DNA of 59,477 nucleotides, taken from IMG/VR virus record IMGVR_UViG_3300022851_000003; one strand, 5' to 3'. The position numbers and the translations under genes were made by a program. The first letter of the stretch is position 1; each line of letters starts with the position of its first letter. The notes beneath the pieces are model-generated. The model worked only from the letters and a program-made list of their open reading frames with translations, was not told where the DNA came from and did no database searches. The DNA comes from a virus. Of the stretch, positions 1 to 59,477 are shown piece by piece.

Positions 1-127
1 AGGTTAAATAATGGCAGACTCAGTAAGAATCCAAATCATCCGAGACGACGTCGTCGTAGACGACTCATCGGCGGTCCTCGGATCAATGCAAGACGGGACC
101 AAAGTGCTTGACGCAATGGTCGCCGCG
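1..127. repeat. terminal overlap copy 1
   Basis: Identical to 59351-59477. Confidence 0.95.
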
Positions 128-4591: not shown

Positions 4592-6046
4592 ATGGCATTC
4601 CAGCGGCGAAACGATGCCCCCGCCGATCAACGGCGGGAGGACGCAACCAAGTTCATGCAGGAGCTTACGGGCATTCCTGCGCGATCCATCGGTTCGCAGA
4701 TTTCCCCCATGCCTGCGGTTCCGCAGCCATCGAGCCCGCTTGCCTCGGTCGGACAGCCACCTACCGAGAATTCGCTGGAGGCTATCCCCGCAGCCGCAGC
4801 CGTGTCAACGATCGACGTGTTCGCGGGTATGGAAGATCCCGGCGATCCACCGATCACCGCATTCGATGAGTCGCCTCCTGACACAAACGAAACTGCGATA
4901 GAGCAGGTCGAATTGACGCTGGAGGACTCGGTCGCTACGGAAGCGGAGACCGCACCTGAGCCTTTGCCTGACTCTTCGATCGACACAGAGCCAGCGTCCG
5001 AACCCGCGATTGAGCAATTGCCCGAAACTGAGACGGCTCCCGAAGCGGAGATCCCGCCCGTTCCAGTCGCAGAGATGCAGCCGATGGTTGCGCCTGACGT
5101 GTCACATTCCGATAGGTCGCCCGATTTCGTGACGCCGGACCCTGTCGAGCCACAGCAACTTGATTCGCCGGATGAACCGATCGTGTCAGCGGAACCACCG
5201 ACCGCCGACATTCCATCGACGCCACAGTCCAACCAAGGCGACGACCTGCCGTTCTGGGCTCGCTATTCCGCACCCGTTGACGTGGAGGTTATTCAGGCCG
5301 GCGGCAATCCAATGATGGCCCGGCGATCGGACTTGACGCACGAACAGAAGATGGAAATCGCCGAGCGAAATACATCCGAACGGCAACAACTCCGCGAGGA
5401 ACGCCAGGAGCGATACGATCAGCGACAACCCGAACGAGACAGCCCGCCGTCGAACGCAACGAGCGATAGCACCGAAACGATCCAAGCACCCCTGTTGTTC
5501 TCCGATCCGCCTGCGAGTGATTCAGCACCAACGGAACCGACGCAACAGAGCGAGCCTGACAACGATCCGCCTGAGCAGGCACCGCAATCGTCTCAGACCG
5601 ACGAGGTGGCCGCTGATAGTGATACCGCATCGCCACCGAACATTGCTGCCAATGTGCCGCTCACTGCTGAGAATTTTGAACTGATTCGCCAGATGGTGAT
5701 GGAAGCCACAGGGCGACCACAGTCAGGGCAGCGGACGATCCCGGTCTCGCCCCAACCGTCCACGCTCAACCCGCAGGTCGCCAATGCAAGTCCAGTTGCA
5801 TTCGATCCCGAACCCACGTCGCAGATCGACACATCGCAAGACGCTCAGTACACCGAGCCCTTGGCGATGGCAAATGATTTCATCGACCGACACAATGAAG
5901 TCATCCGAATGATTATCGACGCCTTGTCCCGACTGACCGCTGGCTACACAGTCCATCGAGCGCGACTCTCAACGATCCTCGATCGACTTGACTCCGAATC
6001 GCAATCGAACGAATACGGTGAAGGAGACTCGACATGGATGGGGTAA
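4592..6046 (+). CDS. acidic Pro/Glu/Asp-rich low-complexity protein
   Basis: 484-aa ORF; long runs such as PEPLPDSSIDTEPASEPAIEQLPETETAPEAE. Confidence 0.5.
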   Translation: MAFQRRNDAPADQRREDATKFMQELTGIPARSIGSQISPMPAVPQPSSPLASVGQPPTENSLEAIPAAAAVSTIDVFAGMEDPGDPPITAFDESPPDTNETAIEQVELTLEDSVATEAETAPEPLPDSSIDTEPASEPAIEQLPETETAPEAEIPPVPVAEMQPMVAPDVSHSDRSPDFVTPDPVEPQQLDSPDEPIVSAEPPTADIPSTPQSNQGDDLPFWARYSAPVDVEVIQAGGNPMMARRSDLTHEQKMEIAERNTSERQQLREERQERYDQRQPERDSPPSNATSDSTETIQAPLLFSDPPASDSAPTEPTQQSEPDNDPPEQAPQSSQTDEVAADSDTASPPNIAANVPLTAENFELIRQMVMEATGRPQSGQRTIPVSPQPSTLNPQVANASPVAFDPEPTSQIDTSQDAQYTEPLAMANDFIDRHNEVIRMIIDALSRLTAGYTVHRARLSTILDRLDSESQSNEYGEGDSTWMG

Positions 6047-20183: not shown

Positions 20184-20519
20184 TTACGACGACTCTCGCC
20201 TTTGATTGCACGCATAACAAACGTCGCCCATGTGCATCGTCTTTCGCCCGCAATGCTTACAGCGTATCTCACGGAACTGCCGCAAGTTTCTGACGTTGTC
20301 GTTCATTGGTGGCTCAGGTGCTTCTAGCATCGCTGCAATCGCCTTGCGAATTGCCGTGGATTGTTTTACGCCGTGCTCATCGCACCACGCCTCAAGCGGC
20401 TGGCGAAGATCGCCGAGCCGCACTGTTGAAAAGACTGTCAACGAGGTTGTCTTTCCGATCGTTGAAAGCGTCAGCAACATTCGCGTACTAACGCTCACGT
20501 TCCTGGGTGTTCGTTTCAC
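20184..20519 (-). CDS. putative DNA-binding regulator with C-terminal zinc ribbon
   Basis: Segment LRQPLEAWCDEHGVKQSTAIRKAIAAMLE followed by CKHCGRK...CYAC. Confidence 0.4.
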   Translation of the reverse strand: MKRTPRNVSVSTRMLLTLSTIGKTTSLTVFSTVRLGDLRQPLEAWCDEHGVKQSTAIRKAIAAMLEAPEPPMNDNVRNLRQFREIRCKHCGRKTMHMGDVCYACNQRRESS

Positions 20520-20997
20520 TGCAATCGTGCCAAATATCTACGGCGGAGGGCCGAGCTACGGGGTAGCTGAACGCAGTATTTTTAACACTCAGACCTGGGA
20601 TTACTATTCGGATTCCGGGGTTGAAATCGACGCTGGCGAATATGCCGGTTTGATCGGGCCGCGAACACAAATAGAGTGGGGCGGCGGGTTTCGCGAATGG
20701 CGATTTCAACCAGTGTTTGAAACAACCACTGTCGATTTAACAACCATTAAAATGAATTTCGAACGCAAATGATTTCTAGGAAGATTGATCGGAGTCATCT
20801 ACGGCGATGTCTGCCAATTTGCCACTTATGCCAGCACTTTGCTGCATACGATTCAGACGGAAATTGTGGGTGTTTGTTACTGCGATCAAATTACAACATT
20901 TGCCCAGGCAAGATCGGCAAGCACTTGCTGCACGGCAAAGGATGCTTGGCCAATCCGCCGTTGTTCTTGTCTGCGAAAACAGAAAATCCCCAACACG

Positions 20998-21022
20998 CCG
21001 CATCACTGCGCGCAGGGGAATA
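20998..21022. repeat. degenerate copy of the palindromic element
   Basis: CTGCGCGCAGGGGAATAACAAG just downstream of the PAPS-reductase-like gene stop. Confidence 0.3.
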
Positions 21023-21042
21023 ACAAGTTCTCTGGATCTTCT

Positions 21043-21909
21043 TTACACGAAACACATGCCGAGCGTGCATTGCTGCACCTTTTCTGCCGATTCGTCGTAG
21101 TCAATATCCGCTTCGGCTAGAGGCACTCGACTGTGATGCAAGAAAACACCGCCTTGCTCGTCCGCTTCGCGAACTTCGCTGTCCGTTTCAATGGCTTTCT
21201 GCCATTGCTCGGGGTAGTTGTCACGGATGTCACGCCATTCGGCGTTGCGCTTGTGCGGGCACATCCAGCAAGACGACTGCTTAGGCAACGGCCAACCAAA
21301 CTCTTTAATGATCGTTAAACATGAGTGAGTGTTTAGCATCAAATCGACCAACGGACAAACCGTTGTCCATCGACCTTCGGTCTTGTGATGCAAGCCCTTC
21401 CATCGCTTCTTTTCTTCGATTCCAAAGCCTAGCCAACGCGTTCCGCCCTTGATTCCTTTGGCCCGCAAGTGTCGATCAACGACACGTTTCTTCCATTCGT
21501 TACTGCAATATGTTTTCAACTTTCCGGTCTGTGTGAACACAGGGAGCAACAGATCACCGTTGCCGGAATACATGTCGACCGTGGCTAGATCGTGGCTTGC
21601 CACTTCGACAGGACATCCGAGTTCGGTCATCATCGGTTGAGTGTACTTTTCGAGGTATTCCCATGTCGTCGGATTTTCTCGGCTGGTGTCTGCCATTACG
21701 ACAACATCAGGCTTCGGCAAAACGCCTTTGGCTATCATGATGCACATCGCAACGGTTTGGCGACCTCCACCGTAGTTGAAGACCAGAGAACAATTTGTTG
21801 CTGCGGATTTGCCGATTAAGTTTATTGGTTTGGTCATAGTTTTTTCTCGCGATGGCGGGACAATTCGAGCGTTACCACGACCTACGTGGCCTTCAAAAAT
21901 ACGATCCAA
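21043..21909 (-). CDS. PAPS-reductase-family protein (ATP pyrophosphatase fold)
   Basis: VVMADTSRENPTTWEYL matches the DTGxxFPET core of the PAPS reductase family; degenerate PP-loop FNYGGGRQT; Cys pair CWMCPHKR. Confidence 0.6.
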   Translation of the reverse strand: MDRIFEGHVGRGNARIVPPSREKTMTKPINLIGKSAATNCSLVFNYGGGRQTVAMCIMIAKGVLPKPDVVVMADTSRENPTTWEYLEKYTQPMMTELGCPVEVASHDLATVDMYSGNGDLLLPVFTQTGKLKTYCSNEWKKRVVDRHLRAKGIKGGTRWLGFGIEEKKRWKGLHHKTEGRWTTVCPLVDLMLNTHSCLTIIKEFGWPLPKQSSCWMCPHKRNAEWRDIRDNYPEQWQKAIETDSEVREADEQGGVFLHHSRVPLAEADIDYDESAEKVQQCTLGMCFV

Positions 21910-22388
21910 TGTGATTTGTAATGCTTCCCGTACTTGCTGCCGAAAAGCGGTTTCTCGGGTGTCAGCTTGAGGATGTCACCCACCGACACCTCGTCTTCGT
22001 TCCACTTAAAAACCAACGTTCCTTCTGGCCGCAACACTCGGAAACATTCGCGGAATCCCGACGTTATTTCCTCCCGCCAATTTTCGCCAAGCGTTCCGTA
22101 CTTTTTCGCTATCCAGCCTTTCGCACCGTTCCGGCCGAAGTGCGGCGGATCGAAAACGACCAACGCGAACGTATCATCCGCAAATGGCATGTCCGTAAAG
22201 TCCGCGATCAAATCAGGATCGACGATCAACTCACGACTGCCGCCCTTGCTGGACTTGTCCGGCAACGTGTGGCGCTCGCTTCGCTTGTCCATGAACGTCG
22301 CTCGTTCGTCGTCACGGTCGAACCAAAACATCTTGCTACCACAACATGCGTCGAGTACAGGCGTGGTAACAATTGATTGATCCGGCAT
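21882..22388 (-). CDS. putative DNA amino-methyltransferase
   Basis: N-terminal TPVLDACCGS and VVFDPPH (DPPY-like catalytic motif); overlaps downstream gene by 28 nt. Confidence 0.5.
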   Translation of the reverse strand: MPDQSIVTTPVLDACCGSKMFWFDRDDERATFMDKRSERHTLPDKSSKGGSRELIVDPDLIADFTDMPFADDTFALVVFDPPHFGRNGAKGWIAKKYGTLGENWREEITSGFRECFRVLRPEGTLVFKWNEDEVSVGDILKLTPEKPLFGSKYGKHYKSHWIVFLKAT

Positions 22389-22413
22389 TGCGGTTACGTC
22401 TTTCGGTTTGGGT

Positions 22414-23091
22414 TTAGTCTTCCGCTCGCGACCACATATCGCAAGCGTTCACAAAATCCGGTATCCACAGGCTAAAGCTACGACCTCGGTTCATTAACGC
22501 AATCGCGCGGGACGCATGGTAGATGTCGGGCCTCAATGTTCTCTCGGCGCCCATCGTAGTCCATGGCACCTCCACTGCGTAAGTCTCGCAATGAGATCGC
22601 TTGATCGCTTTCTCCGACCCAGTCTCGAACATCTTCCAGAATGGATGATTGTCTCGAACCGGGAACGCGTACGTGATCGCTGGAATCACCTTTGTTTTCA
22701 GTTCACGACGGTTCCAGTGAATCAAAAAGAAGCAAGCCGAACCGAACGACGCACGTTCGTACATGAACTTCAGTTGACGTGACCTCGCCTTTCGCATCTC
22801 AATGCGATACTTACTCAAGTCGAAACTGGCTTGGCTACAAACCTTCGCATCGAAGACAACTTCTTGCTGAGGTGTTCCGAACACGCCCTGGTAATCCGGC
22901 AACGATGCGATGAGTCTCGCACGAACTGACCCATCAGGAAACCTCTGCATCGGCACCGCAAACACACCTGGTTTATCGACTGCCATCGCCCGCTCTTGCT
23001 TCAACCATGATAATCGCGGATCGATCAAATCTTGGAAGCCGGTTCCGGTTAGATGATCTTCGCAAGTGACAAGTGGTTCTGTCTCCATCAT
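22414..23091 (-). CDS. hypothetical protein
   Basis: 225-aa ORF in the same operon as the methyltransferase. Confidence 0.5.
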   Translation of the reverse strand: MMETEPLVTCEDHLTGTGFQDLIDPRLSWLKQERAMAVDKPGVFAVPMQRFPDGSVRARLIASLPDYQGVFGTPQQEVVFDAKVCSQASFDLSKYRIEMRKARSRQLKFMYERASFGSACFFLIHWNRRELKTKVIPAITYAFPVRDNHPFWKMFETGSEKAIKRSHCETYAVEVPWTTMGAERTLRPDIYHASRAIALMNRGRSFSLWIPDFVNACDMWSRAED

Positions 23092-23723
23092 GATACCGTC
23101 CTTACTAAACCGTCCATGGAAATCCCAGCGGACTCGATAGCTGGTCGCTGAGAAGGTTTATTTGGAATCCTGGGTAAGTTTGCACGAGAGGGATCGCACG
23201 CAATACGGCGAGGCACAGGCTCTTGCAAAACACCGTCTCGCACCTCTGCTTGACCAAGGCCCGGCAAACAAGCCCCCGCCTCGCCATCGCACCCTTGCCT
23301 CCGAAACGACTGATACGCCTTCAGGAAATTCAATCGGTACCACTTCTCATCTTCGGTCGTGCCGCAACTCTCCAGCGCTGCCGGCCAGCCGCCGAGCACA
23401 CGAATCGTCGCATTGATCGCACGGTCCTCGAAATCGACGCTCTTGTACGAACCCAGCGGCATCGCCTTCAGGACTTCAGACCAAGCCGCGATCGCCAGAT
23501 CCTCCGTCGATCCGCCTTGACACGCTTGCCGAACCTCTGCCGGAACCGGCAACCGAGACGACGTGGCGATCAACGTCGCAACAGCCTGCTGAACCTCCGC
23601 GAGACCCAAGTCCTGAAGCCCGAGCCAGTAACCCAGCAACCGAGCCCGAGTTCCCTCCTGGCCGAACGTCTCGAGCATCGCTGTGATCGTCACCGCGAAA
23701 TCTTTTTTGTCTGCCTCAACCAT
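23088..23723 (-). CDS. hypothetical protein
   Basis: ORF 23088-23909; start moved to ATG at 23723, 2 nt after the upstream stop. Confidence 0.45.
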   Translation of the reverse strand: MVEADKKDFAVTITAMLETFGQEGTRARLLGYWLGLQDLGLAEVQQAVATLIATSSRLPVPAEVRQACQGGSTEDLAIAAWSEVLKAMPLGSYKSVDFEDRAINATIRVLGGWPAALESCGTTEDEKWYRLNFLKAYQSFRRQGCDGEAGACLPGLGQAEVRDGVLQEPVPRRIACDPSRANLPRIPNKPSQRPAIESAGISMDGLVRTVS

Positions 23724-24471
23724 TTGCAAAATCCTTGATCGCTTGGGCACTGTTTTCGACGCGCTGCTTGGCAAAAGTTTTGGGGCCATCGCGACTCTCG
23801 GGACGGCCACCAAAATCCCATCCGGCCCACCCGTTGGACATCGCTCGCTTGACCATGACCCGAAGCGACTCGAGACCATGTTGGTCAGCGAACTCTCGCA
23901 TCGATACACAAACAGCCCTCAGGCCGCGAGGCTTGTACCCCTGACGCCGTTCGATCTTATATCCGACCCAGTTGTCAACTATCTCCGCAAGCTCGTTAGA
24001 CGGGCACTCAGAGGCTATTATCTCGTTTGCCTTCAAATCGTCAATTTTTGGCTTGCTCGTTTTATTATTCTTAGAGTCCTTGTCCTTGTCCTTATCCTTA
24101 GCGCCTTCGGCAGACCCTTCTAAGGCGCTTGTAAGGCCCTTCTTTTCGACACCTAATTTCTCGAGTCGATTCAAGACGCTCTTGTGAACTCGGTTTTCTG
24201 GGTTCAGTTCGCCGTACTGAAAATGGCAGAACGCACGGACCCAAAATTTGCCGTCATCGAGCTTCACAATTCGGTCGCCACAGACCCCCGCAAACTCATC
24301 CCAATCGATCTCGCAACCGATCTGTAAATTGGCAATCGGCTCCACAATTTCGATGACCCCAGCGTGGTCGCATTCGTCGCAAACGAAGCCCCAAGCTAGC
24401 TTATGGCAAGGGGCTAGTGAAACGAACCAACGGTCCTTCCATTTCCCGGTTTCTGTGAATCGTTTTGCCAT
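23716..24471 (-). CDS. hypothetical protein with Lys/Asp-rich linker
   Basis: 251-aa ORF; N-terminal Cys cluster and KDKDKDKDSKNNK linker. Confidence 0.45.
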   Translation of the reverse strand: MAKRFTETGKWKDRWFVSLAPCHKLAWGFVCDECDHAGVIEIVEPIANLQIGCEIDWDEFAGVCGDRIVKLDDGKFWVRAFCHFQYGELNPENRVHKSVLNRLEKLGVEKKGLTSALEGSAEGAKDKDKDKDSKNNKTSKPKIDDLKANEIIASECPSNELAEIVDNWVGYKIERRQGYKPRGLRAVCVSMREFADQHGLESLRVMVKRAMSNGWAGWDFGGRPESRDGPKTFAKQRVENSAQAIKDFANG

Positions 24472-26109: not shown

Positions 26110-26673
26110 TTAGAATTTCTTCCCGCCATCGGCCAACCGATGCTCTGCCTTGTGGTCGGCACGCTGCGCATTGAACGCCATCTTCTCCCGGTAGGCTCCT
26201 TCCAGATCCAATCCGTGACCGCCGCAGTAATCCAGAATGCGAATCACCGCGTCGGCCATCTCGACCTCTTCCATCTTGCGGTGCGGGAGCTTGTCATCCA
26301 TCAAGTCTTTGCGAGCTCCTTCCATCGCCTCGGCGATCTCGCTGACGATCAACATCATCTGCTCGCCTCTGTTGCGTTCGATCCGCTCCCCGGTCTTGGG
26401 ATCGTGCCACCATTTCAAGTTGGCTTCATGAGCCTCGGCCGCGTAGTCATTGAGAGTCATTCCCAGTTCTTCTTCCGATGCAACGTCTACGACACACTGC
26501 TGGCAAACAAAGTCGTATCCATCCCCGTAATCGTGATAGGGCTTGATCCGCCGCATCTCGTCTTCGTATTGGCACCGACCGCAGTTTCGGCACGTCCTAA
26601 TAGGTACGTCGCCGTCGATGTCGCTCGGCATACGACCGGGGCTTGCCAATCGTTTCTCTGGGATTGAATTCAT
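26110..26673 (-). CDS. MazG-like nucleotide pyrophosphohydrolase with N-terminal zinc ribbon
   Basis: EVEMADAVIRILD...AYREKMAFNAQR helical NTP-PPase motif; CRNCGRC...CQQC at N-terminus. Confidence 0.55.
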   Translation of the reverse strand: MNSIPEKRLASPGRMPSDIDGDVPIRTCRNCGRCQYEDEMRRIKPYHDYGDGYDFVCQQCVVDVASEEELGMTLNDYAAEAHEANLKWWHDPKTGERIERNRGEQMMLIVSEIAEAMEGARKDLMDDKLPHRKMEEVEMADAVIRILDYCGGHGLDLEGAYREKMAFNAQRADHKAEHRLADGGKKF

Positions 26674-27264: not shown

Positions 27265-28233
27265 TTAATCCTTCTTGGCTAGCTCGTTGAGCAACTCGCC
27301 CAACTGCTTGCTTTCCGCCGGGCTCAAATCTTCATCGCCATCGAACTCGCCGCCGATCTCGATCAACGCGTCGTGACTCGATGCGGACAGGAGACGACGT
27401 TCGTACGATGCGAATGCTTCGCTCTTGCCGTCCGCTGATTCGGCGATCAGTGGCGATTCTTCTTGCATCTCTGTCGACAAGTCCAAACCGCTTCCCATGT
27501 CGCCGAGTTTGCGTCGTTGAATCCCGGTCGATCGGACGTGTCCTTCAAACACAACATCCTCGTCGTCCTTCTCAAACGCATCGCGAATCTCTGCCGACAA
27601 TGGCAACCACTTGGACACACGACGGAACACCGTTTTTTTAGCCATTTCGCTCCAATCGGTTTTCCATGGCCCGTTGTTGCCAGACTTGGACCGATTGCGG
27701 ATTGCCTCAACGGCATCCTTGGACATGACCTCGCACTTGGGTTCGCGGTCCTTCATTCGGACTTCGCAATACACCGCGATCACATCACCCTCGCTTTCCG
27801 GCTTGTCCTCGTCCCGTCGCAAATACCACGGGACATGATCGGCCACGATGCCTTTGCTGTACTCAAACAGGTCGCCTTCATGGACAACGTCGGCATGGAT
27901 CGACGACACAACACCGGATCGGTACGCCAGTTCCACCAATCCCTTGTAGTCAATGATGAGCTGGCAAGTGGTTCCATAGGGAATCAAGTGCGCCCTGCGA
28001 CCATCGGGCTCGAGTCCCCATTGGCTCAAGCTCATCATCGCCTCGAAGAACGAAGCCTGAGAACACTGGGCCAGTTTGGGAGTGCGGGTCAGTGCCGTAA
28101 TAGCAACCCGCACCATCCGCTCGGGCGTCATGTGGTCAGGGAGTATCTTGGCGATCTCGTTCTTAAAATGTTCACCCGAAAGATGATCGCGAATCGTTGG
28201 GGCGGACTTCGCAATTTGTTTGTCTTGACTCAT
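27265..28233 (-). CDS. recT: RecT-family single-strand annealing protein
   Basis: FKNEIAKILP...RMVRVAITALTRTPKLAQC...GLEPDGRRAHLIPYG...IIDYKGLVELAYRSG matches the RecT core. Confidence 0.8.
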   Translation of the reverse strand: MSQDKQIAKSAPTIRDHLSGEHFKNEIAKILPDHMTPERMVRVAITALTRTPKLAQCSQASFFEAMMSLSQWGLEPDGRRAHLIPYGTTCQLIIDYKGLVELAYRSGVVSSIHADVVHEGDLFEYSKGIVADHVPWYLRRDEDKPESEGDVIAVYCEVRMKDREPKCEVMSKDAVEAIRNRSKSGNNGPWKTDWSEMAKKTVFRRVSKWLPLSAEIRDAFEKDDEDVVFEGHVRSTGIQRRKLGDMGSGLDLSTEMQEESPLIAESADGKSEAFASYERRLLSASSHDALIEIGGEFDGDEDLSPAESKQLGELLNELAKKD

Positions 28234-28282: not shown

Positions 28283-29290
28283 TCAGCTTGCCTCCCATTC
28301 TTTCTTGTAGTTCAGGTAATTCGGCATTGGCAGCGACAACACATCTCCGTAATGTTCGTGCTTCCAGATACCGCTCGACTCGCATCGACGCAGACCACGG
28401 AACGCCTTCTCGATCTCTTCGACCGCTTGATCGATCCAAGCCGGTTCCAATTCGTAGACCTCCACGCGATAAGGTTTCTTTTTCTCAACGCAGACGAAGT
28501 GAAACGGAACCTCGCGACCCAGCAACGCGTTGACCATGCTGCCGTACAAGACTCGTTGCCGGGCATACCCGAAGTCGGCGACCGCGTTGGCAAACCCTTT
28601 CGGTGATGCACTCCGCACGGTCTTCAAGTCGGCAACGAAACCGCCCATCGCCGTCTCGCTATATCGATCCAACTTGCATCGCGTCAGAATGCCGGTGCCC
28701 GCGTGCTCGCCGATCAACGGAACCTCGCTTTCACCTTCACCGAACAGCAGACGATTGGCCGAGTCGTGAGCACGCAAGGCGTCCTCCATGTCACGAAGCT
28801 GATCGTACGTCTCGTTCGACGTGACAACCTGGCCCTCGGGAACAACGACCGACGATCGAACCTTTTGCTCGAGCTGATCGAACTCCTCGCTTTTCATCAA
28901 CACGCTGCCCTTATGCAACTTGGCCCAATCCGTGTAAGGCTTGCCACGGCAATAACCTTGCTCGTTCAACACATGATCGGGAATCCGAGTCGCGATCCGA
29001 AACTTCGAGGCGATCTTCAAATACTCATTACGCGAAACCCCGGTCACTTCGGGATCCAGCACGGTCGACGTTTGCAGCCCACCCTCGAGCGTCATCTCAT
29101 GAAGGGCGGTGCCGAGCAATCTATCCGGCGTATCGCCACTGGGTTCGATCAGACCCGTGTTGTAAAGACCGTCGTACAGAGCCGGGTCATCGAGGAACCT
29201 GCTCATCTTCGAGTTACTGACGCCTGGCCCAGCGTGATACTCTTCGTTGGTGCCAGCATCAAAACGTTCAATAGCGGTGAACTGAATCAC
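28283..29290 (-). CDS. RecE/YqaJ-like PD-(D/E)xK exonuclease
   Basis: N-terminal EEYHAGPGVSNSKMSRFLDDPALY typical of exonuclease VIII-like proteins; directly upstream of recT; GTG start overlaps csrA stop. Confidence 0.6.
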   Translation of the reverse strand: MIQFTAIERFDAGTNEEYHAGPGVSNSKMSRFLDDPALYDGLYNTGLIEPSGDTPDRLLGTALHEMTLEGGLQTSTVLDPEVTGVSRNEYLKIASKFRIATRIPDHVLNEQGYCRGKPYTDWAKLHKGSVLMKSEEFDQLEQKVRSSVVVPEGQVVTSNETYDQLRDMEDALRAHDSANRLLFGEGESEVPLIGEHAGTGILTRCKLDRYSETAMGGFVADLKTVRSASPKGFANAVADFGYARQRVLYGSMVNALLGREVPFHFVCVEKKKPYRVEVYELEPAWIDQAVEEIEKAFRGLRRCESSGIWKHEHYGDVLSLPMPNYLNYKKEWEAS

Positions 29291-29466
29291 TTATCATTAC
29301 TTTCATTCTTGGGTTGGGTTTGAATAATGTCATCCCGATGGATGTCGATGGTCCGATCCGCGTCGATACCGATACGAACCTTGTCGCCACGAATGTCAAC
29401 GACAACGACCTTGATGTCCTTGCCAATCATGATGGCTTCACCAATGCGTCTACTAAGAACCAACAC
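29287..29466 (-). CDS. csrA: CsrA/RsmA-family RNA-binding regulator
   Basis: VLVLSRRIGEAIMIGKDIKVVVVDIRGDKVRIGIDADRTIDIHRDDI aligns with CsrA ([46 protein letters not shown]); GTG start 6 nt after GGGAG. Confidence 0.7.
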   Translation of the reverse strand: MLVLSRRIGEAIMIGKDIKVVVVDIRGDKVRIGIDADRTIDIHRDDIIQTQPKNESNDK

Positions 29467-29509
29467 GCCACACTCCCTTTGGTGTTGAAGAACAGGACTT
29501 TCAAAACAT

Positions 29510-29594
29510 TCGAGGCGATCGGAATCGAACCGACGCACGCCACCTTTCCGCAAACGCTTCTTAAATGGCCGCTCTACCAGTGAGCTACGCCTCG
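29510..29594 (-). tRNA. tRNA-like element with non-canonical anticodon region
   Basis: Acceptor CGAGGCG/CGCCTCG, D-arm GCTC-ACTGGTA-GAGC, T-arm GTCGG-TTCGATT-CCGAT; a 4-bp stem with a 23-nt loop replaces the anticodon arm. Confidence 0.4.
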
Positions 29595-29703
29595 ATGGGT
29601 CACAATGGGGTGGCAAATCCCCGGTTCCTACCTTTCGGTAACGTCGCTTGCTTCACCACGACGCGCCGCCATGCCTATCTACAAATCCTTGATTGGTTCG
29701 ACC

Positions 29704-30463: not shown

Positions 30464-30515
30464 CTTATAAGAAATGTTTCACTTTTCAAAACCAATCAAA
30501 GTCAGGAAGACTCCC

Positions 30516-30539
30516 GTGGTCACCAAACTGGTCACCAAA
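30516..30539 (+). repeat. candidate integrase arm-type site, copy 2
   Basis: GTGGTCACCAAACTGGTCACCAAA overlapping the integrase 3' end. Confidence 0.45.
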
Positions 30540-31706
30540 TCACGATTGTTTGTACGGCGATTCATCGAAGTCGATCTTCCCTTGCAGATCACCGACGTAG
30601 AATTTCCGCGTCGTTGTCTCGCTCGAATGCCGCAGGATCTCCTGGCACAGTTGGATAGGCATCCCACGCAGGCTCCATCGCGTGACCATGCTCGACCGGA
30701 AGTGTTTGGCCGTGGCCGTCTTCGGTGGCGACCCGGGTTCGGCGATCACCTCGGCCTTGGCTCCGATCGCGGAGATCAGCTTGGACAGAGCGGTTCGGTC
30801 TTTCACTTCGCCGGTCTCGCAACGCGGCTGGTAAATCGCTTCCGTCCGATCCGCCCGCTCCCGCAGGTGCGATGCGAAGTCGTTGGTAATCCTGGCGACC
30901 TGCGCACGCCGGTTCTTCTGGGCGGAAGTCCACGACATCATCGGTGTCGGCGTGTCGAGTCCGATCGGGTAATGCCAGTCACGGCGGGTTGCGTGCATCC
31001 CCAACGGCTCTCGCATCCGACAACCACTGAGCCAAAGAGCTTCCAGGTATTCCTGAACACTCGCCGCCGACCGGGATCCAACCAGGCCCGGGCAAACGTC
31101 CTGCATCTTCCGCAGCGATTCCTCACTGATCGGGATCAACCGCATCGCAGGAAGGTTCTGCTCTTGTCGGCCACGTCTTCGATTCGGCGGCATGTATCGC
31201 ATCAACTCCAGGGAAGCCGCCCACGAAAGACCGCTTCGGAGCGTTGCCATGTAACTCGGGATCGATCCGACCGCGATCGGCTTAAAGCCATCAATCCCCC
31301 GTCGAAGCGCAGTTTCCACCGAGGCGAGGAACAGAGGGGACACGTCCGAAAGAACGAACTCCCCTTGAATGTCCCGGCCCGCAACGGCATCGACGCGTTT
31401 ACAGACGGCAGACCACTTGTATCGGTTGTCGCTCGATGTGTCACTGAGATGGTCAGTCAGGTAGCGATCGCAGAAACGATCCCACGTCCATCCCTCGTTC
31501 CCCGAATTCAGCTTGGAATTCAGTTTGCTCTGAAGCTCGTCGGCCAGTTTATCGGCCGCTCGCTTCGATCTCTTGGAACGGGTGATGATTTCGGTCTTCT
31601 GGGTCTTAACAGACCGCGAGCCGAAGGGCCGCCACTTCAAGTAGTAGCAGCCCTTCGACGATTTCCAAAACGCGCTCACCCGCACAGTGGGCGCACAATG
31701 ATTCAT
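30540..31706 (-). CDS. int: tyrosine integrase
   Basis: C-terminal catalytic region KHFRSSMVTRW ... LRHSSETTTRKFYV (HxxR, H, Y); next to tRNA-derived att core. Confidence 0.8.
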   Translation of the reverse strand: MNHCAPTVRVSAFWKSSKGCYYLKWRPFGSRSVKTQKTEIITRSKRSKRAADKLADELQSKLNSKLNSGNEGWTWDRFCDRYLTDHLSDTSSDNRYKWSAVCKRVDAVAGRDIQGEFVLSDVSPLFLASVETALRRGIDGFKPIAVGSIPSYMATLRSGLSWAASLELMRYMPPNRRRGRQEQNLPAMRLIPISEESLRKMQDVCPGLVGSRSAASVQEYLEALWLSGCRMREPLGMHATRRDWHYPIGLDTPTPMMSWTSAQKNRRAQVARITNDFASHLRERADRTEAIYQPRCETGEVKDRTALSKLISAIGAKAEVIAEPGSPPKTATAKHFRSSMVTRWSLRGMPIQLCQEILRHSSETTTRKFYVGDLQGKIDFDESPYKQS

Positions 31707-31981
31707 GGGGTTTTCGACGATTCCTTTGTCCGAGATGCCGCGCCCGACTTCCGCCGACGCTCGGCCTTAGCTTCCACTGTATCCACTTTGGTCGCGCCGA
31801 TGACCGCATTCTTGAAGTCCAGACCCAGAACCATTAGGCATCCTTCCCAGGGTTCGGAGTGGACACATTGCTCGCGAACGAATCGCTTCACCTCGGCCAT
31901 CGACTTCCCGAGGATCTCCCGTAGTTCATCGCAGGTGTATAGAACGTCGTCTTCAATTGCTCTAAATCGGGCTTTTGCCAT
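31703..31981 (-). CDS. excisionase-like DNA-binding protein
   Basis: ORF 31703-32026; ATG at 31981 gives MAKARFRAIEDDVLYTCDELREILGKSMAEVKRFV; stop overlaps int start. Confidence 0.4.
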   Translation of the reverse strand: MAKARFRAIEDDVLYTCDELREILGKSMAEVKRFVREQCVHSEPWEGCLMVLGLDFKNAVIGATKVDTVEAKAERRRKSGAASRTKESSKTP

Positions 31982-32129
31982 TTCAAATAATCCTTGACTT
32001 AGCCGCTGGCAGGCACTATCGTGCATCCATACCGGTAACGGCCACCCTCACTGGGTTGGTTTGTAATCTGGAAATAGCTGATTGGGAACTTTCTTAGGGT
32101 ATAACAATCAGCGACGAAAACTTGGAACA

Positions 32130-43407: not shown

Positions 43408-43617
43408 ATGCCTCTTCCCGATCTGACGACTCGCCAGCAATCCACTCTCATCAACAAGGTGGATCACAACTGCCGTCGAAATGGCAAGAGATTCCTGCGT
43501 GATCTCGGCGGAACTGGGCACGCCGCTGAACTCGACGCGCAATTACAAATCGCCCGTAACAATCCCGATGCGGTGAAAGCCGCCGAACTCTTTACGAAGG
43601 AGAAAGATCGGAAATGA
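43408..43617 (+). CDS. small protein co-transcribed with serine recombinase
   Basis: 69-aa ORF; stop overlaps recombinase start. Confidence 0.4.
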   Translation: MPLPDLTTRQQSTLINKVDHNCRRNGKRFLRDLGGTGHAAELDAQLQIARNNPDAVKAAELFTKEKDRK

Positions 43618-44438
43618 AAGTCATAGGATATGGTCGTGAATCGACCGCCGACCAATCGATTTCTGCCGAAGTGCAGCAGCGACAATGCCGCGAGTGGTTT
43701 GACCGAACATTCAAGGACAATCCTGACGCGAAGTTTGTGCGAATGCTCAACGACGAGTCCGTCTCAGGCAAGACACGCCTGTTCCAACGTCCGCAGGGGA
43801 GTCTCCTGTTGACCATGCTCGAACGAGGCGACACCGTCGTCGCGTCCAAAATGTCACGGATGTTTCGATCCATGCCCGACACGGTCAACACGCTCGACGT
43901 GTTCAATGAAGCCGGCATCAAGGTCGTGCTGCTCGACATCGGCATGGACTTCGACACGCCAGTGGGCAAACTAATCTTCCACATCCTCGGGGCAGTCAAT
44001 CAGTTTGAACGCGAACTAATCTCCGAGCGGACCAAGGAAGCTCTCGCCCAGCTCCGTGAACGTGGCCAATACCTCGGCTCACCACCGCCGGGGTGGAAGT
44101 TCGACAGCAAGCGGACCAACGGGATTCGGGAACTGATCCCTGACATGGACCGCCGCACCTTCGGGGAATACTCCCTCGATCAACTGGTCGAAGGCCGATC
44201 CGCCAAGTCGATTGCCTGCGAGATCGAAGCACTATTGCGGCGCGAGCACATCCAACGACACGGCACCAACCTGAAGGAAAAACGAGAGAAGATCGCGTTC
44301 TCCGACACCGATGTCGTTCGACTCGCCGCCTTTGCAGTGGCCGGGTTCCCGCCGATCAATAGCACGGCGCTGAAAAAAGTCCTCGGTGTCAATCCATTCC
44401 GAGTTGAAACCCTGCGGCAACTGGCAGCGTCCGCCTAA
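43614..44438 (+). CDS. serine recombinase (resolvase/invertase family)
   Basis: N-terminal VIGYGRESTADQS with catalytic Ser context; resolvase-like core through QFERELISERTKEAL; C-terminal extension. Confidence 0.75.
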   Translation: MKVIGYGRESTADQSISAEVQQRQCREWFDRTFKDNPDAKFVRMLNDESVSGKTRLFQRPQGSLLLTMLERGDTVVASKMSRMFRSMPDTVNTLDVFNEAGIKVVLLDIGMDFDTPVGKLIFHILGAVNQFERELISERTKEALAQLRERGQYLGSPPPGWKFDSKRTNGIRELIPDMDRRTFGEYSLDQLVEGRSAKSIACEIEALLRREHIQRHGTNLKEKREKIAFSDTDVVRLAAFAVAGFPPINSTALKKVLGVNPFRVETLRQLAASA

Positions 44439-58337: not shown

Positions 58338-59357
58338 ATGTCTGGCACATCCCTCGATCTATCGCAAATTCGCACCGACGCTCTCACGAGCGCCGCGACG
58401 TTTCGGACGTTGATCGGTGTGTACTCGACTGCGGACGTCGATGGGCTGATCGCTGCGATTACAGCGTTGACAAGCGAGGACATTGACACCCTTGCTGAAA
58501 TCAACGCGATCATTGGAGATGCCGATGTTGCGTCAGTGTCTTATGTCGATGGACTGGCAGCGAACTACGCCACAGCGGCACAGGGGGCACTTGCTGACAC
58601 CGCGTTGCAATCCGCCGACATCACAAGCGGTGCGATCACGGCGGGGACGGGAGACATTGATTTTGACGCTCTAGGTGGTGCAGGGTCGCCTCTTGTTTTG
58701 ACTGCTTCACTAGCGACTGAAGTCCCTCTAACAGTCAAAGCCGCAGCAAGTCAAACGGCCAACTTGACTGAGTGGCAGGATAATGCTGGGACTAATCTGA
58801 CTTGGGTCGACAAACTCGGTAATATCTATCTACAAGGTGCAGCCAGTAGATTATTTCGAATTTATATGGAAGGTTCTAACCCGGTACTAGATGCCACTGT
58901 CGGAGCTGCGTCTGCGAGGATAAGCCTAAAAGGCGCGCCTGTTAGACTGATGGGAAACGTGGAGTTTAGCAACGTAACAAACCAGATAATGGCTCAAATA
59001 ATCACGAGTAGTTTTGACGTCCAACTGATCGGTAATACCGCTGGTAGTTTCTCTATATCTATTCCACAATCGAGCAACGGAAACCAAGGCAATGAAACTC
59101 TCTCGATCACTGGACAAACAGCCGAGGAACTTTCTACCAATGTAATTGTTGGCGGCGATGTCGTGATAACGGCTGGTGACGGAGCATCAGCTAGTGCCGG
59201 TGCTGCTGACGGAGGTGATTTAATTCTCCAAGGTGGTACAGGATACGGGACCGGGAGACAAGGGCTTATACTGGCTAGCAATTTACCTACGTCTGATCCC
59301 ACCGTTGCCGGAGCACTTTGGAACGACAGCGGCACTCTTAAAATATCAGTAGGTTAA
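58338..59357 (+). CDS. tail-fibre-like protein
   Basis: Ala/Thr/Gly/Ser-rich 339-aa ORF ending AGALWNDSGTLKISVG; stop lies in the terminal overlap. Confidence 0.5.
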   Translation: MSGTSLDLSQIRTDALTSAATFRTLIGVYSTADVDGLIAAITALTSEDIDTLAEINAIIGDADVASVSYVDGLAANYATAAQGALADTALQSADITSGAITAGTGDIDFDALGGAGSPLVLTASLATEVPLTVKAAASQTANLTEWQDNAGTNLTWVDKLGNIYLQGAASRLFRIYMEGSNPVLDATVGAASARISLKGAPVRLMGNVEFSNVTNQIMAQIITSSFDVQLIGNTAGSFSISIPQSSNGNQGNETLSITGQTAEELSTNVIVGGDVVITAGDGASASAGAADGGDLILQGGTGYGTGRQGLILASNLPTSDPTVAGALWNDSGTLKISVG

Positions 59358-59477
59358 ATAATGGCAGACTCAGTAAGAATCCAAATCATCCGAGACGACG
59401 TCGTCGTAGACGACTCATCGGCGGTCCTCGGATCAATGCAAGACGGGACCAAAGTGCTTGACGCAATGGTCGCCGCG
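59351..59477. repeat. terminal overlap copy 2
   Basis: Identical to 1-127. Confidence 0.95.

Follow-up and report, generated by a model that had tools for sequence, protein, structure and literature searches.

Four minus-strand genes between positions 21043 and 23723 of the IMG/VR virus record IMGVR_UViG_3300022851_000003 (59,477 nt, hereafter the window) were proposed in an earlier note to form an operon, a candidate module for DNA modification, pairing a DNA methyltransferase with a protein of the 3′-phosphoadenosine 5′-phosphosulfate (PAPS) reductase superfamily. We find that these genes are the distal end of a leftward gene string of ~8.6 kb and that they are not a conserved module. The first two encode a DUF6475 protein and a RecU-type Holliday-junction resolvase, the third a small methyltransferase and the fourth a relative of phage lambda NinC, here called the NinC-like protein. 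Our preferred reading, to which we give a probability of about 0.6, is that the methyltransferase gene and the NinC-like gene are counter-defence genes independent of each other, in a nin-like accessory region of lambda style. The region would form the far end of an early leftward operon, also of lambda style, in a complete, probably temperate phage, with the order RecE-like protein, RecT, MazG, probable initiator (251 amino acids (aa)), DUF6475 protein, RecU-type resolvase and the two accessory genes, with the methyltransferase as an independently mobile gene inserted between the RecU-type and NinC-like genes. The two accessory genes would then adjoin because genes of this sort gather here, with no obligate pathway linking them.

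Comparison across loci shows that the four genes do not travel together. First, the methyltransferase occurs within 8 kb of a NinC-like gene at 1 of 49 viral loci, which is the window's own contig; conversely, a NinC-like gene lies within 6 kb at 2 of 80 viral methyltransferase loci, and homologues of the RecU-type, DUF6475 and 251-aa proteins were found at none of those 80. Second, the closest syntenic relative (L146) carries a RecU orthologue (67% identity) 24 nt upstream of a NinC-like gene (75%) with no methyltransferase between them, and the gene was therefore either inserted in the window lineage or lost in L146. The methyltransferase/PAPS-reductase pair on which the earlier proposal was built is thus not conserved as a pair, and a conserved four-gene module is rejected on the same counts (1/49, 2/80 and 0/80 loci). 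A four-gene DNA-modification pathway does not hold up either, as one of its two further members is a resolvase of RecU type, the other belongs to a replication module, and no linkage among the genes is conserved.

The surroundings of NinC-like genes are varied. In other close relatives the neighbours are LexA-like, VRR_NUC, YqaJ/RecT and ParB genes, and distant homologues adjoin terminase, portal or primase-polymerase genes, others helicases or RecT. The arrangement in lambda is O, P, ren, NinB, NinC and, further on, NinG (the Rap resolvase), the Nin genes thus coming after the replication genes; in Vibrio phage K43b an O-like initiator is followed by a methyltransferase of the same family as that in the window and then by NinB. 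Two further genes of L146 were observed: the one after the NinC-like gene (5026-5550) encodes a 5′(3′)-deoxyribonucleotidase (PF06941 NT5C), and upstream lies a gene for a protein with an anti-defence hairpin domain of Acb2/Tad1 type, as would suit a neighbourhood of accessory or anti-defence genes.

Profile comparisons place the 264-aa product of the fourth gene in the phage lambda NinC family, phrog_424. The 288-aa form of the protein matches phrog_424 at an E-value of 2e-34 (residues 42-287; profile positions 163-411), lambda NinC itself, which is annotated as a PAPS reductase, matches at 1e-89, and hhalign of a 20-homologue profile (A1) against lambda NinC gave 92% probability and E 6.6e-7 over 170 columns. 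Motifs of NinC and the window protein lie in register: SFSGGRTS with NYGGGRQT, MDTGCEHP with ADTSRENP, FCTDRLK with YCSNEWK, and GNCIFC with SSCWMC. The window protein thus carries a PP-loop-like YGGGRQT, ADTxRE, CSxEWK, CWMC and a C-terminal QCxLGxC. Across an alignment of 25 sequences (A4), which includes lambda NinC and Vibrio and Pseudomonas phage homologues, G25 of the GGGRQT loop, D50, T51, E54, C111, K116, E142, R145, C190, C193 and C257 are invariant. Its earlier assignment to the PAPS-reductase superfamily stands, and the core shows none of the loss of active-site residues that had been considered; it is strongly conserved.

An AlphaFold2 model of the NinC-like protein (predicted local distance difference test (pLDDT) 82.5, predicted template modelling score 0.81) has the PP-loop, or adenine-nucleotide alpha-hydrolase, fold: Foldseek returned, at probability 1.00, the [4Fe-4S] enzyme LarE, GMP synthase, NcsA, TtuA and yeast PAPS reductase, with template modelling (TM) scores of 0.35-0.50. 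The best viral fold matches are phage 'PAPS reductases'. With the subfamily profile, 5,631 cluster representatives are found at E ≤ 1e-3. Almost every one of the best 150 is ~250 aa long, which points to an overwhelmingly stand-alone family; no methyltransferase fusion occurs among those 150. Rare architectures among them include tandem duplications of the NinC-like domain (P0377 and P0359) and N-terminal Cys-rich, zinc-ribbon-like segments (P0360 and P0341), P0360 having in addition a GIY-YIG-like C-terminal tail. Read by eye, these duplications and added segments hint at a nucleic-acid substrate.

Membership in the families named in the earlier note is a separate matter. On these searches the NinC-like protein appears only remotely related to SspD, DndC, BrxP and CysH. 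Against the PADLOC SspD model (PDLC02782), which has no curated PADLOC cut-off, it scores 8.6e-11 and 40 bits over 215 of 277 profile positions; all 25 relatives match that model weakly (best 5.6e-15), scores that fit superfamily-level homology and look far too low for membership. No DndC or BrxP match was returned for the window protein by PADLOC, nor any DndC, SspD or CysH match by NCBIfam, at E ≤ 0.1 in each case, so the suggested kinship with DndC or BrxP does not extend to membership; among the relatives, 2 of 25 match DndC models and 3 of 25 BrxP, at ~1e-5. One could nevertheless take the protein for a true DndC/SspD-like enzyme that installs phosphorothioate (PT) linkages in phage DNA through the host's IscS and DndDE or SspBC, mimicking the self-mark. 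The weak SspD homology in every member, the conserved cysteines and nucleotide-binding loop, as in iron–sulfur (Fe–S) PP-loop sulfurtransferases, and the anti-Dnd phenotype of a related fusion protein (below) speak for such an enzyme. Set against them are the low SspD score, the missing model matches and the lack of partner genes: dndA/iscS, dndD and dndE were found neither in the window nor among 150 near neighbours of homologues, sspA, sspB and sspC neither in the window nor in related loci, and no BREX genes lie near the NinC-like gene. The NinC-like family is moreover very widespread and occurs in varied contexts, which we judge hard to square with dependence on a sporadic host PT system. 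We regard a PT-installing enzyme as improbable.

A metabolic role is weaker still. An auxiliary metabolic gene encoding a real (P)APS reductase, which would boost host sulfate assimilation during infection, could account for the DT..E motif, for a C...CxxC pattern like that of Fe–S APS reductases and for the C-terminal Cys-x-Leu-Gly motif, which resembles the ECGLH motif carried by CysH; the fold is also like that of yeast and plant (P)APS reductases (TM 0.41-0.50), and databases annotate the family in this way. The match to PF01507, however, reaches 14.2 bits where the cut-off is 22.5 and covers residues 42-94 only, no CysH model matches, and Pfam assigned no family at E ≤ 0.001 to the six NinC-like homologues scanned. 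A Gly-rich PP-loop-like motif is atypical for CysH. The gene also has replication and recombination genes as neighbours and no further gene for sulfur assimilation around it, and its homologues lie between terminase and portal genes or in nin regions. We therefore consider a sulfate-assimilation enzyme very improbable.

The 168-aa product of the third gene is supported, by family matches and motifs, as a (D/N)PP(Y/F/H)-type S-adenosylmethionine (SAM) methyltransferase, in agreement with the first description of the gene. It matches phrog_954 (7e-71), PADLOC MTase_II (PDLC03288, 2e-68) and an orphan methyltransferase model (PDLC03730, 7e-48) over nearly its full length, and LDACCGS (motif I) and FDPPH (motif IV) are invariant in 20 homologues. 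The family is very large and unusually conserved: there are more than 4,700 metagenomic homologues, the best 120 at 67-87% identity, and 252 cultured phage records hold members at <60% identity (~44-54% among the matches listed). Their hosts include Streptococcus, Listeria, Enterococcus, Lactobacillus, Salmonella, Acinetobacter, Vibrio, Gordonia, Corynebacterium, Akkermansia, Porphyromonas and Escherichia (an Stx2c-converting phage), so that the family spans phages of Firmicutes, Actinobacteria, Proteobacteria, Bacteroidota and Verrucomicrobia. At 168 aa the protein is too short to include a target-recognition domain of its own. An AlphaFold2 model of moderate quality (pLDDT 68) gave Foldseek matches, all with TM <0.5, to the tRNA N2-methylguanosine (m2G) enzymes Trm11, Trm14 and TrmN as well as to CamA, M.TaqI and an N4-cytosine methyltransferase.

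Methyltransferases of other kinds do recur near NinC-like genes. In a survey of 150 proteins encoded within ~1.3 kb of NinC-like genes at 47 loci, DNA methyltransferases were the commonest neighbour class (PF01555 four times, PF02086 three times and PF00145 twice). Their density is 0.85 per 10 kb at <1 kb from NinC-like genes and 0.20 per 10 kb at 4-8 kb, a comparison biased towards near matches by queries that were themselves taken from near neighbours. A relative whose NinC-like protein is 71% identical (L002) has a Dam-like methyltransferase gene 616 bp downstream instead, a PF01555 enzyme lies 2.3 kb from the NinC-like gene at another locus (L004), and a third (L058) repeats the order methyltransferase then NinC-like gene. 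The two functions may even be joined in one polypeptide: the N-terminal half of the 479-aa protein p0018 of Vibrio phage 75E35.1 (MW824405.1) is homologous to the window NinC-like protein (hhalign 88%, E 3e-6), and ~260 residues follow the NinC-like domain; 'modification methylase' is the product name in the record. That remainder shows no similarity to the window methyltransferase. A two-gene segment with a 479-aa PAPS/Dam fusion, moved by recombination, gave a Vibrio crassostreae phage resistance to the host's Dnd system (bioRxiv 10.1101/2021.05.05.442762), and the segment is cited as conferring Dnd resistance in PMC13551039. An anti-restriction role, which had been put forward as one option for the locus, is made plausible by this segment, in whose fusion the PAPS-like domain is homologous. 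The companion remark that the role of PAPS-reductase-like proteins in phages is not established largely still holds, but it overlooks this experiment and the membership in the lambda NinC family.

These observations bear on whether the methyltransferase and the NinC-like protein act as one. In a coupled two-enzyme DNA-protection unit, the two would be the unfused counterpart of the Vibrio PAPS/methyltransferase fusion, one giving DNA binding or methylation and the other a sulfur-based or adenylate-dependent modification, with protection against both PT-dependent and classical restriction. The genes are adjacent, co-oriented and 44 nt apart; methyltransferases of at least four families recur beside NinC-like genes, at a density that declines with distance; in L002 the orthologue is accompanied by a different methyltransferase, and L058 repeats the gene order; and a natural fusion exists, on a segment that confers anti-Dnd activity. 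Yet about four-fifths of NinC-like loci have no DNA methyltransferase nearby (9 matches among the 150 neighbours at 47 loci), the counts at methyltransferase loci and the arrangement in L146 described above speak against a pair, the window enzyme shows no relationship to the methyltransferase domain of the fusion, and methyltransferase fusions are missing from the best 150 representatives. We judge a coupled unit unlikely. Its more specific form, in which the NinC-like enzyme would add to phage DNA, or take from it, a mark that contains sulfur or depends on adenylate while the methyltransferase supplies DNA engagement, as an unfused version of the fusion, is likewise unlikely; if true, such joint action would show what the lambda NinC family does biochemically. 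For the nin-like accessory region, NinC-like genes that travel alone yet tend to adjoin unrelated methyltransferases are support for a counter-defence role over a metabolic one.

The genes upstream place the pair in a replication and recombination setting. Hidden Markov model searches identify both proteins that had been listed as unknown: one is a resolvase of RecU type, the other a DUF6475 protein whose gene has a replication-gene position. The RecU-type protein scores 30.2 bits against PF03838 RecU (Pfam cut-off 25) and 3e-10 against the Holliday-junction resolvase family phrog_843, and LPD...x13...FDAK, the PD-(D/E)xK pattern, can be read from its sequence; it falls far under the cut-offs of the NCBIfam RecU equivalogs and would thus be a divergent RecU-like protein rather than an orthologue of Bacillus RecU. 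Its orthologue in L146 is annotated PF03838. The DUF6475 protein matches phrog_10105 (5e-28) and reaches 23 bits, under the cut-off, against PF20081. The gene directly upstream of RecU in L146 has a weak IstB_IS21 (helicase-loader-like) match, which together with the position suggests that the DUF6475 protein is a replication accessory protein. Before it lies the gene for the 251-aa protein, which has no Pfam, PHROG, NCBIfam or PDB match; from its position it is a probable replication-initiation or organiser protein. Partial homologues of the 251-aa protein adjoin NinC-like genes at two loci (L017 and L026), followed in L017 by a DnaB-type helicase. PDB sequence searches with the 251-aa, DUF6475 and RecU-like proteins gave nothing usable.

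With a PD-(D/E)xK nuclease gene directly upstream of the methyltransferase gene, 25 nt apart, the two might be read as a phage-borne restriction–modification pair, the nuclease being the restriction endonuclease and the methyltransferase its partner. The nuclease passes the Pfam RecU threshold, however, and matches the resolvase PHROG; its 67%-identical orthologue in L146 stands where there is no methyltransferase at all, and none of the 80 methyltransferase loci has a homologue. This pairing is scarcely credible, and we reject it on those grounds.

The four ORFs (open reading frames) themselves, of which the last had been given as 21043-21909, are present as first described, with the peptides quoted for them: TPVLDACCGS and FDPPH in the 168-aa protein and DTSRENPTTWEY in the NinC-like protein. 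Each has many homologues, by which we take all four to be real genes and not chance ORFs. Two starts call for comment. The mechanical ORF of the DUF6475 gene extends to a GTG at 23909, and the gene has an ATG at 23723; alignment to phrog_10105 begins at residue 1 of the 211-aa form, in support of that ATG. For the NinC-like gene the start is most likely the ATG at 21837 (264 aa) and not the TTG at 21909: the 264-aa form matches a public gene call (P0001) exactly, and homologues start at or after the same point. It follows that a gap of 44 nt separates the gene from the methyltransferase gene. The tight packing noted before accordingly holds as small gaps or overlaps (251-aa gene/DUF6475 -8 nt, DUF6475/RecU -4, RecU/methyltransferase +25), and the supposed overlap between the last two genes does not.

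Upstream, the string runs through the genes listed in Table 1, with several small ORFs between the MazG-like gene and the 251-aa gene. The CsrA-like gene heads the leftward recombination operon, has an N-terminal extension of ~50 residues and overlaps the RecE-like gene by 4 nt. Downstream, the string ends at a low-GC stretch that contains no minus-strand ORF. Competing ORFs on both strands lie 3′ of the NinC-like gene (20230-21023 plus; 20184-20519 minus). Neither plus-strand ORF, 20230-20772 or 20769-21023, has a family match; the latter is Cys-rich, encodes 84 aa and was scanned against PHROGs only. PHROG searches gave no match for either of them or for 20184-20519, and Pfam gave nothing for 20230-20772 and sub-threshold matches only for 20184-20519. 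Scans for consensus promoters and terminators did no better than on shuffled sequence and were uninformative, so the operon boundaries rest on spacing only.

Table 1. Features of the leftward gene string and its end (positions in the window).
Feature	Position	Strand	Basis or remark
CsrA-like RNA-binding regulator	29287-29616	minus	PF02599 67 bits
RecE-like PDDEXK exonuclease	28283-29290	minus	leftward string
RecT	27265-28233	minus	leftward string
MazG-like pyrophosphatase	26110-26673	minus	leftward string
251-aa gene	23716-24471	minus	probable replication role, from position only
DUF6475 / phrog_10105 protein, 211 aa	23088-23723	minus	phrog_10105 5e-28
RecU-type PD-(D/E)xK Holliday-junction resolvase, 225 aa	22414-23091	minus	PF03838, phrog_843
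Small orphan SAM-dependent amino-methyltransferase (predicted), 168 aa	21882-22388	minus	phrog_954, PADLOC MTase_II
NinC-family PAPS-reductase-like protein (by profile), 264 aa	21043-21837	minus	phrog_424 2e-34
Low-GC stretch, 523 bp, 48.9% GC	20520-21042		end of leftward string

A direct terminal repeat of 127 bp (window 1-127 = 59351-59477) marks the window as a circularly closed, complete phage genome of ~59,350 bp, with head, portal, terminase and tail genes and a serine recombinase gene at 43614-44438; the phage is probably temperate. Two long ORFs on opposite strands overlap almost fully (30474-31997 plus and 30540-31706 minus), the minus-strand one with a weak tyrosine-integrase PHROG match (3e-10) and the plus-strand one with none. 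Relatives of the NinC-like protein in the genome collection (L135-L141) lie mostly on contigs of Planctomycetota metagenome-assembled genomes (Pirellulaceae 73% identity, Fuerstiella 77% over a partial match, Planctomycetaceae 52%, Schlesneria 42% and Phycisphaeraceae 39%), with one alphaproteobacterial contig (72%) and one Opitutae contig (38%) besides, and this suggests that the host is probably a planctomycete. Cultured phages hold no near-identical DNA, and no tRNAs were found in the window. The whole-genome PHROG summary further contains single matches to a thymidylate synthase (6.6e-12) and a Lar-like restriction alleviation protein (6e-11), neither assigned to an ORF, and to 'PhoH-like' and 'ribonucleotide reductase' families; an enzyme of thymidylate-synthase type could be relevant to base modification.

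Under our preferred reading, we infer the following activities for the two accessory genes. The methyltransferase would methylate phage nucleic acid, likeliest DNA at N6-adenine or N4-cytosine, and so let it escape restriction. The NinC-like protein would bind an adenine nucleotide and carry an Fe–S cluster and/or a reactive C-terminal cysteine; it would perform sulfur-transfer or adenylation chemistry on a nucleic-acid-related substrate and, together with host factors, act in counter-defence, for example against PT-dependent Dnd/Ssp restriction.

Several points weigh against this reading. To our knowledge, no NinC-type protein has a known biochemical activity. The loop GGGRQT of the window protein is non-canonical with respect to SGGxDS, and ATP pyrophosphatase activity is therefore not assured. 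Among the weak fold matches of the methyltransferase, tRNA m2G enzymes rank alongside or above DNA enzymes; with these mixed matches and no target-recognition domain, the label 'DNA methyltransferase' is an annotation and not a result, and the DNA target is putative. The anti-Dnd effect maps to an insert of two genes, in which the fusion has a methyltransferase of a different family. The enrichment of methyltransferases near NinC-like genes could mean real functional coupling, which a reading with independent genes would underrate. Finally, lambda NinC is non-essential and its function unexplained (PMC10695390, PMC3224144).

These findings matter chiefly for annotation. Genes for NinC-type 'PAPS reductases' belong to the commonest accessory genes of phages and are routinely annotated as sulfur-metabolism genes; the comparative data argue against calling them CysH and support a counter-defence role over a metabolic one. 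The locus adds a divergent NinC-like member, unseen by Pfam, from a probable planctomycete phage, and reveals no new system. The question of what NinC does is no more tractable here than in lambda or Vibrio phages. The real substrate of the methyltransferase family may merit a test, given its conservation and its mixed fold matches.

Among known systems, the nearest in arrangement is the nin region of lambda. Lambda NinC (Orf290) belongs to the same PHROG, and the alignment spans the nucleotide-binding loop, DT..E, C..K and CxxC; both proteins stand alone, are ~250-290 aa long and have their genes beyond the replication genes, close to that for a junction resolvase, which is NinG/Rap in lambda and of RecU type in the window. 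They differ in sequence, with only ~19-22% identity, and at the C-terminus, where the window protein ends in QCxLGxCF and NinC has a longer tail; the window subfamily, moreover, is not recognised by Pfam PF01507. Compared with the PAPS/Dam fusion p0018 of the Vibrio crassostreae podophage (Piel et al.), a single 479-aa polypeptide, the window has two genes, and the anti-Dnd activity belongs to the two-gene insert and not to the NinC-like subfamily of the window. In Vibrio phage 75E35.1, which carries the sibling p0018 gene, NinG lies near the NinC-like/methylase fusion. Lambda NinC and two Vibrio phage homologues match the first 275-280 of the 495 positions of phrog_33262, a family that the window protein does not match. 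SspD, DndC and BrxP share the superfamily and conserved cysteines with the window protein, but their phosphorothioation partners (a cysteine desulfurase, the DndD/SspC ATPase and DndE/SspB) were not found in the window. Orphan phage methyltransferases of phrog_954 typically lie after replication genes, as in K43b, and the window enzyme has nothing distinctive among them. The only solved chain found by sequence is chain C of PDB 21fy, 'PptA' (270 aa), matched by the A4 profile at E 7.8e-10 over residues 10-227. PptA shares the C..K and CxxC positions of the NinC-like family, has the loop SCGAPS and carries ITEEHP where the window protein has ADT.RE. A literature search found no paper describing this PptA; its structure may already hold the answer to the function of the NinC-like family.

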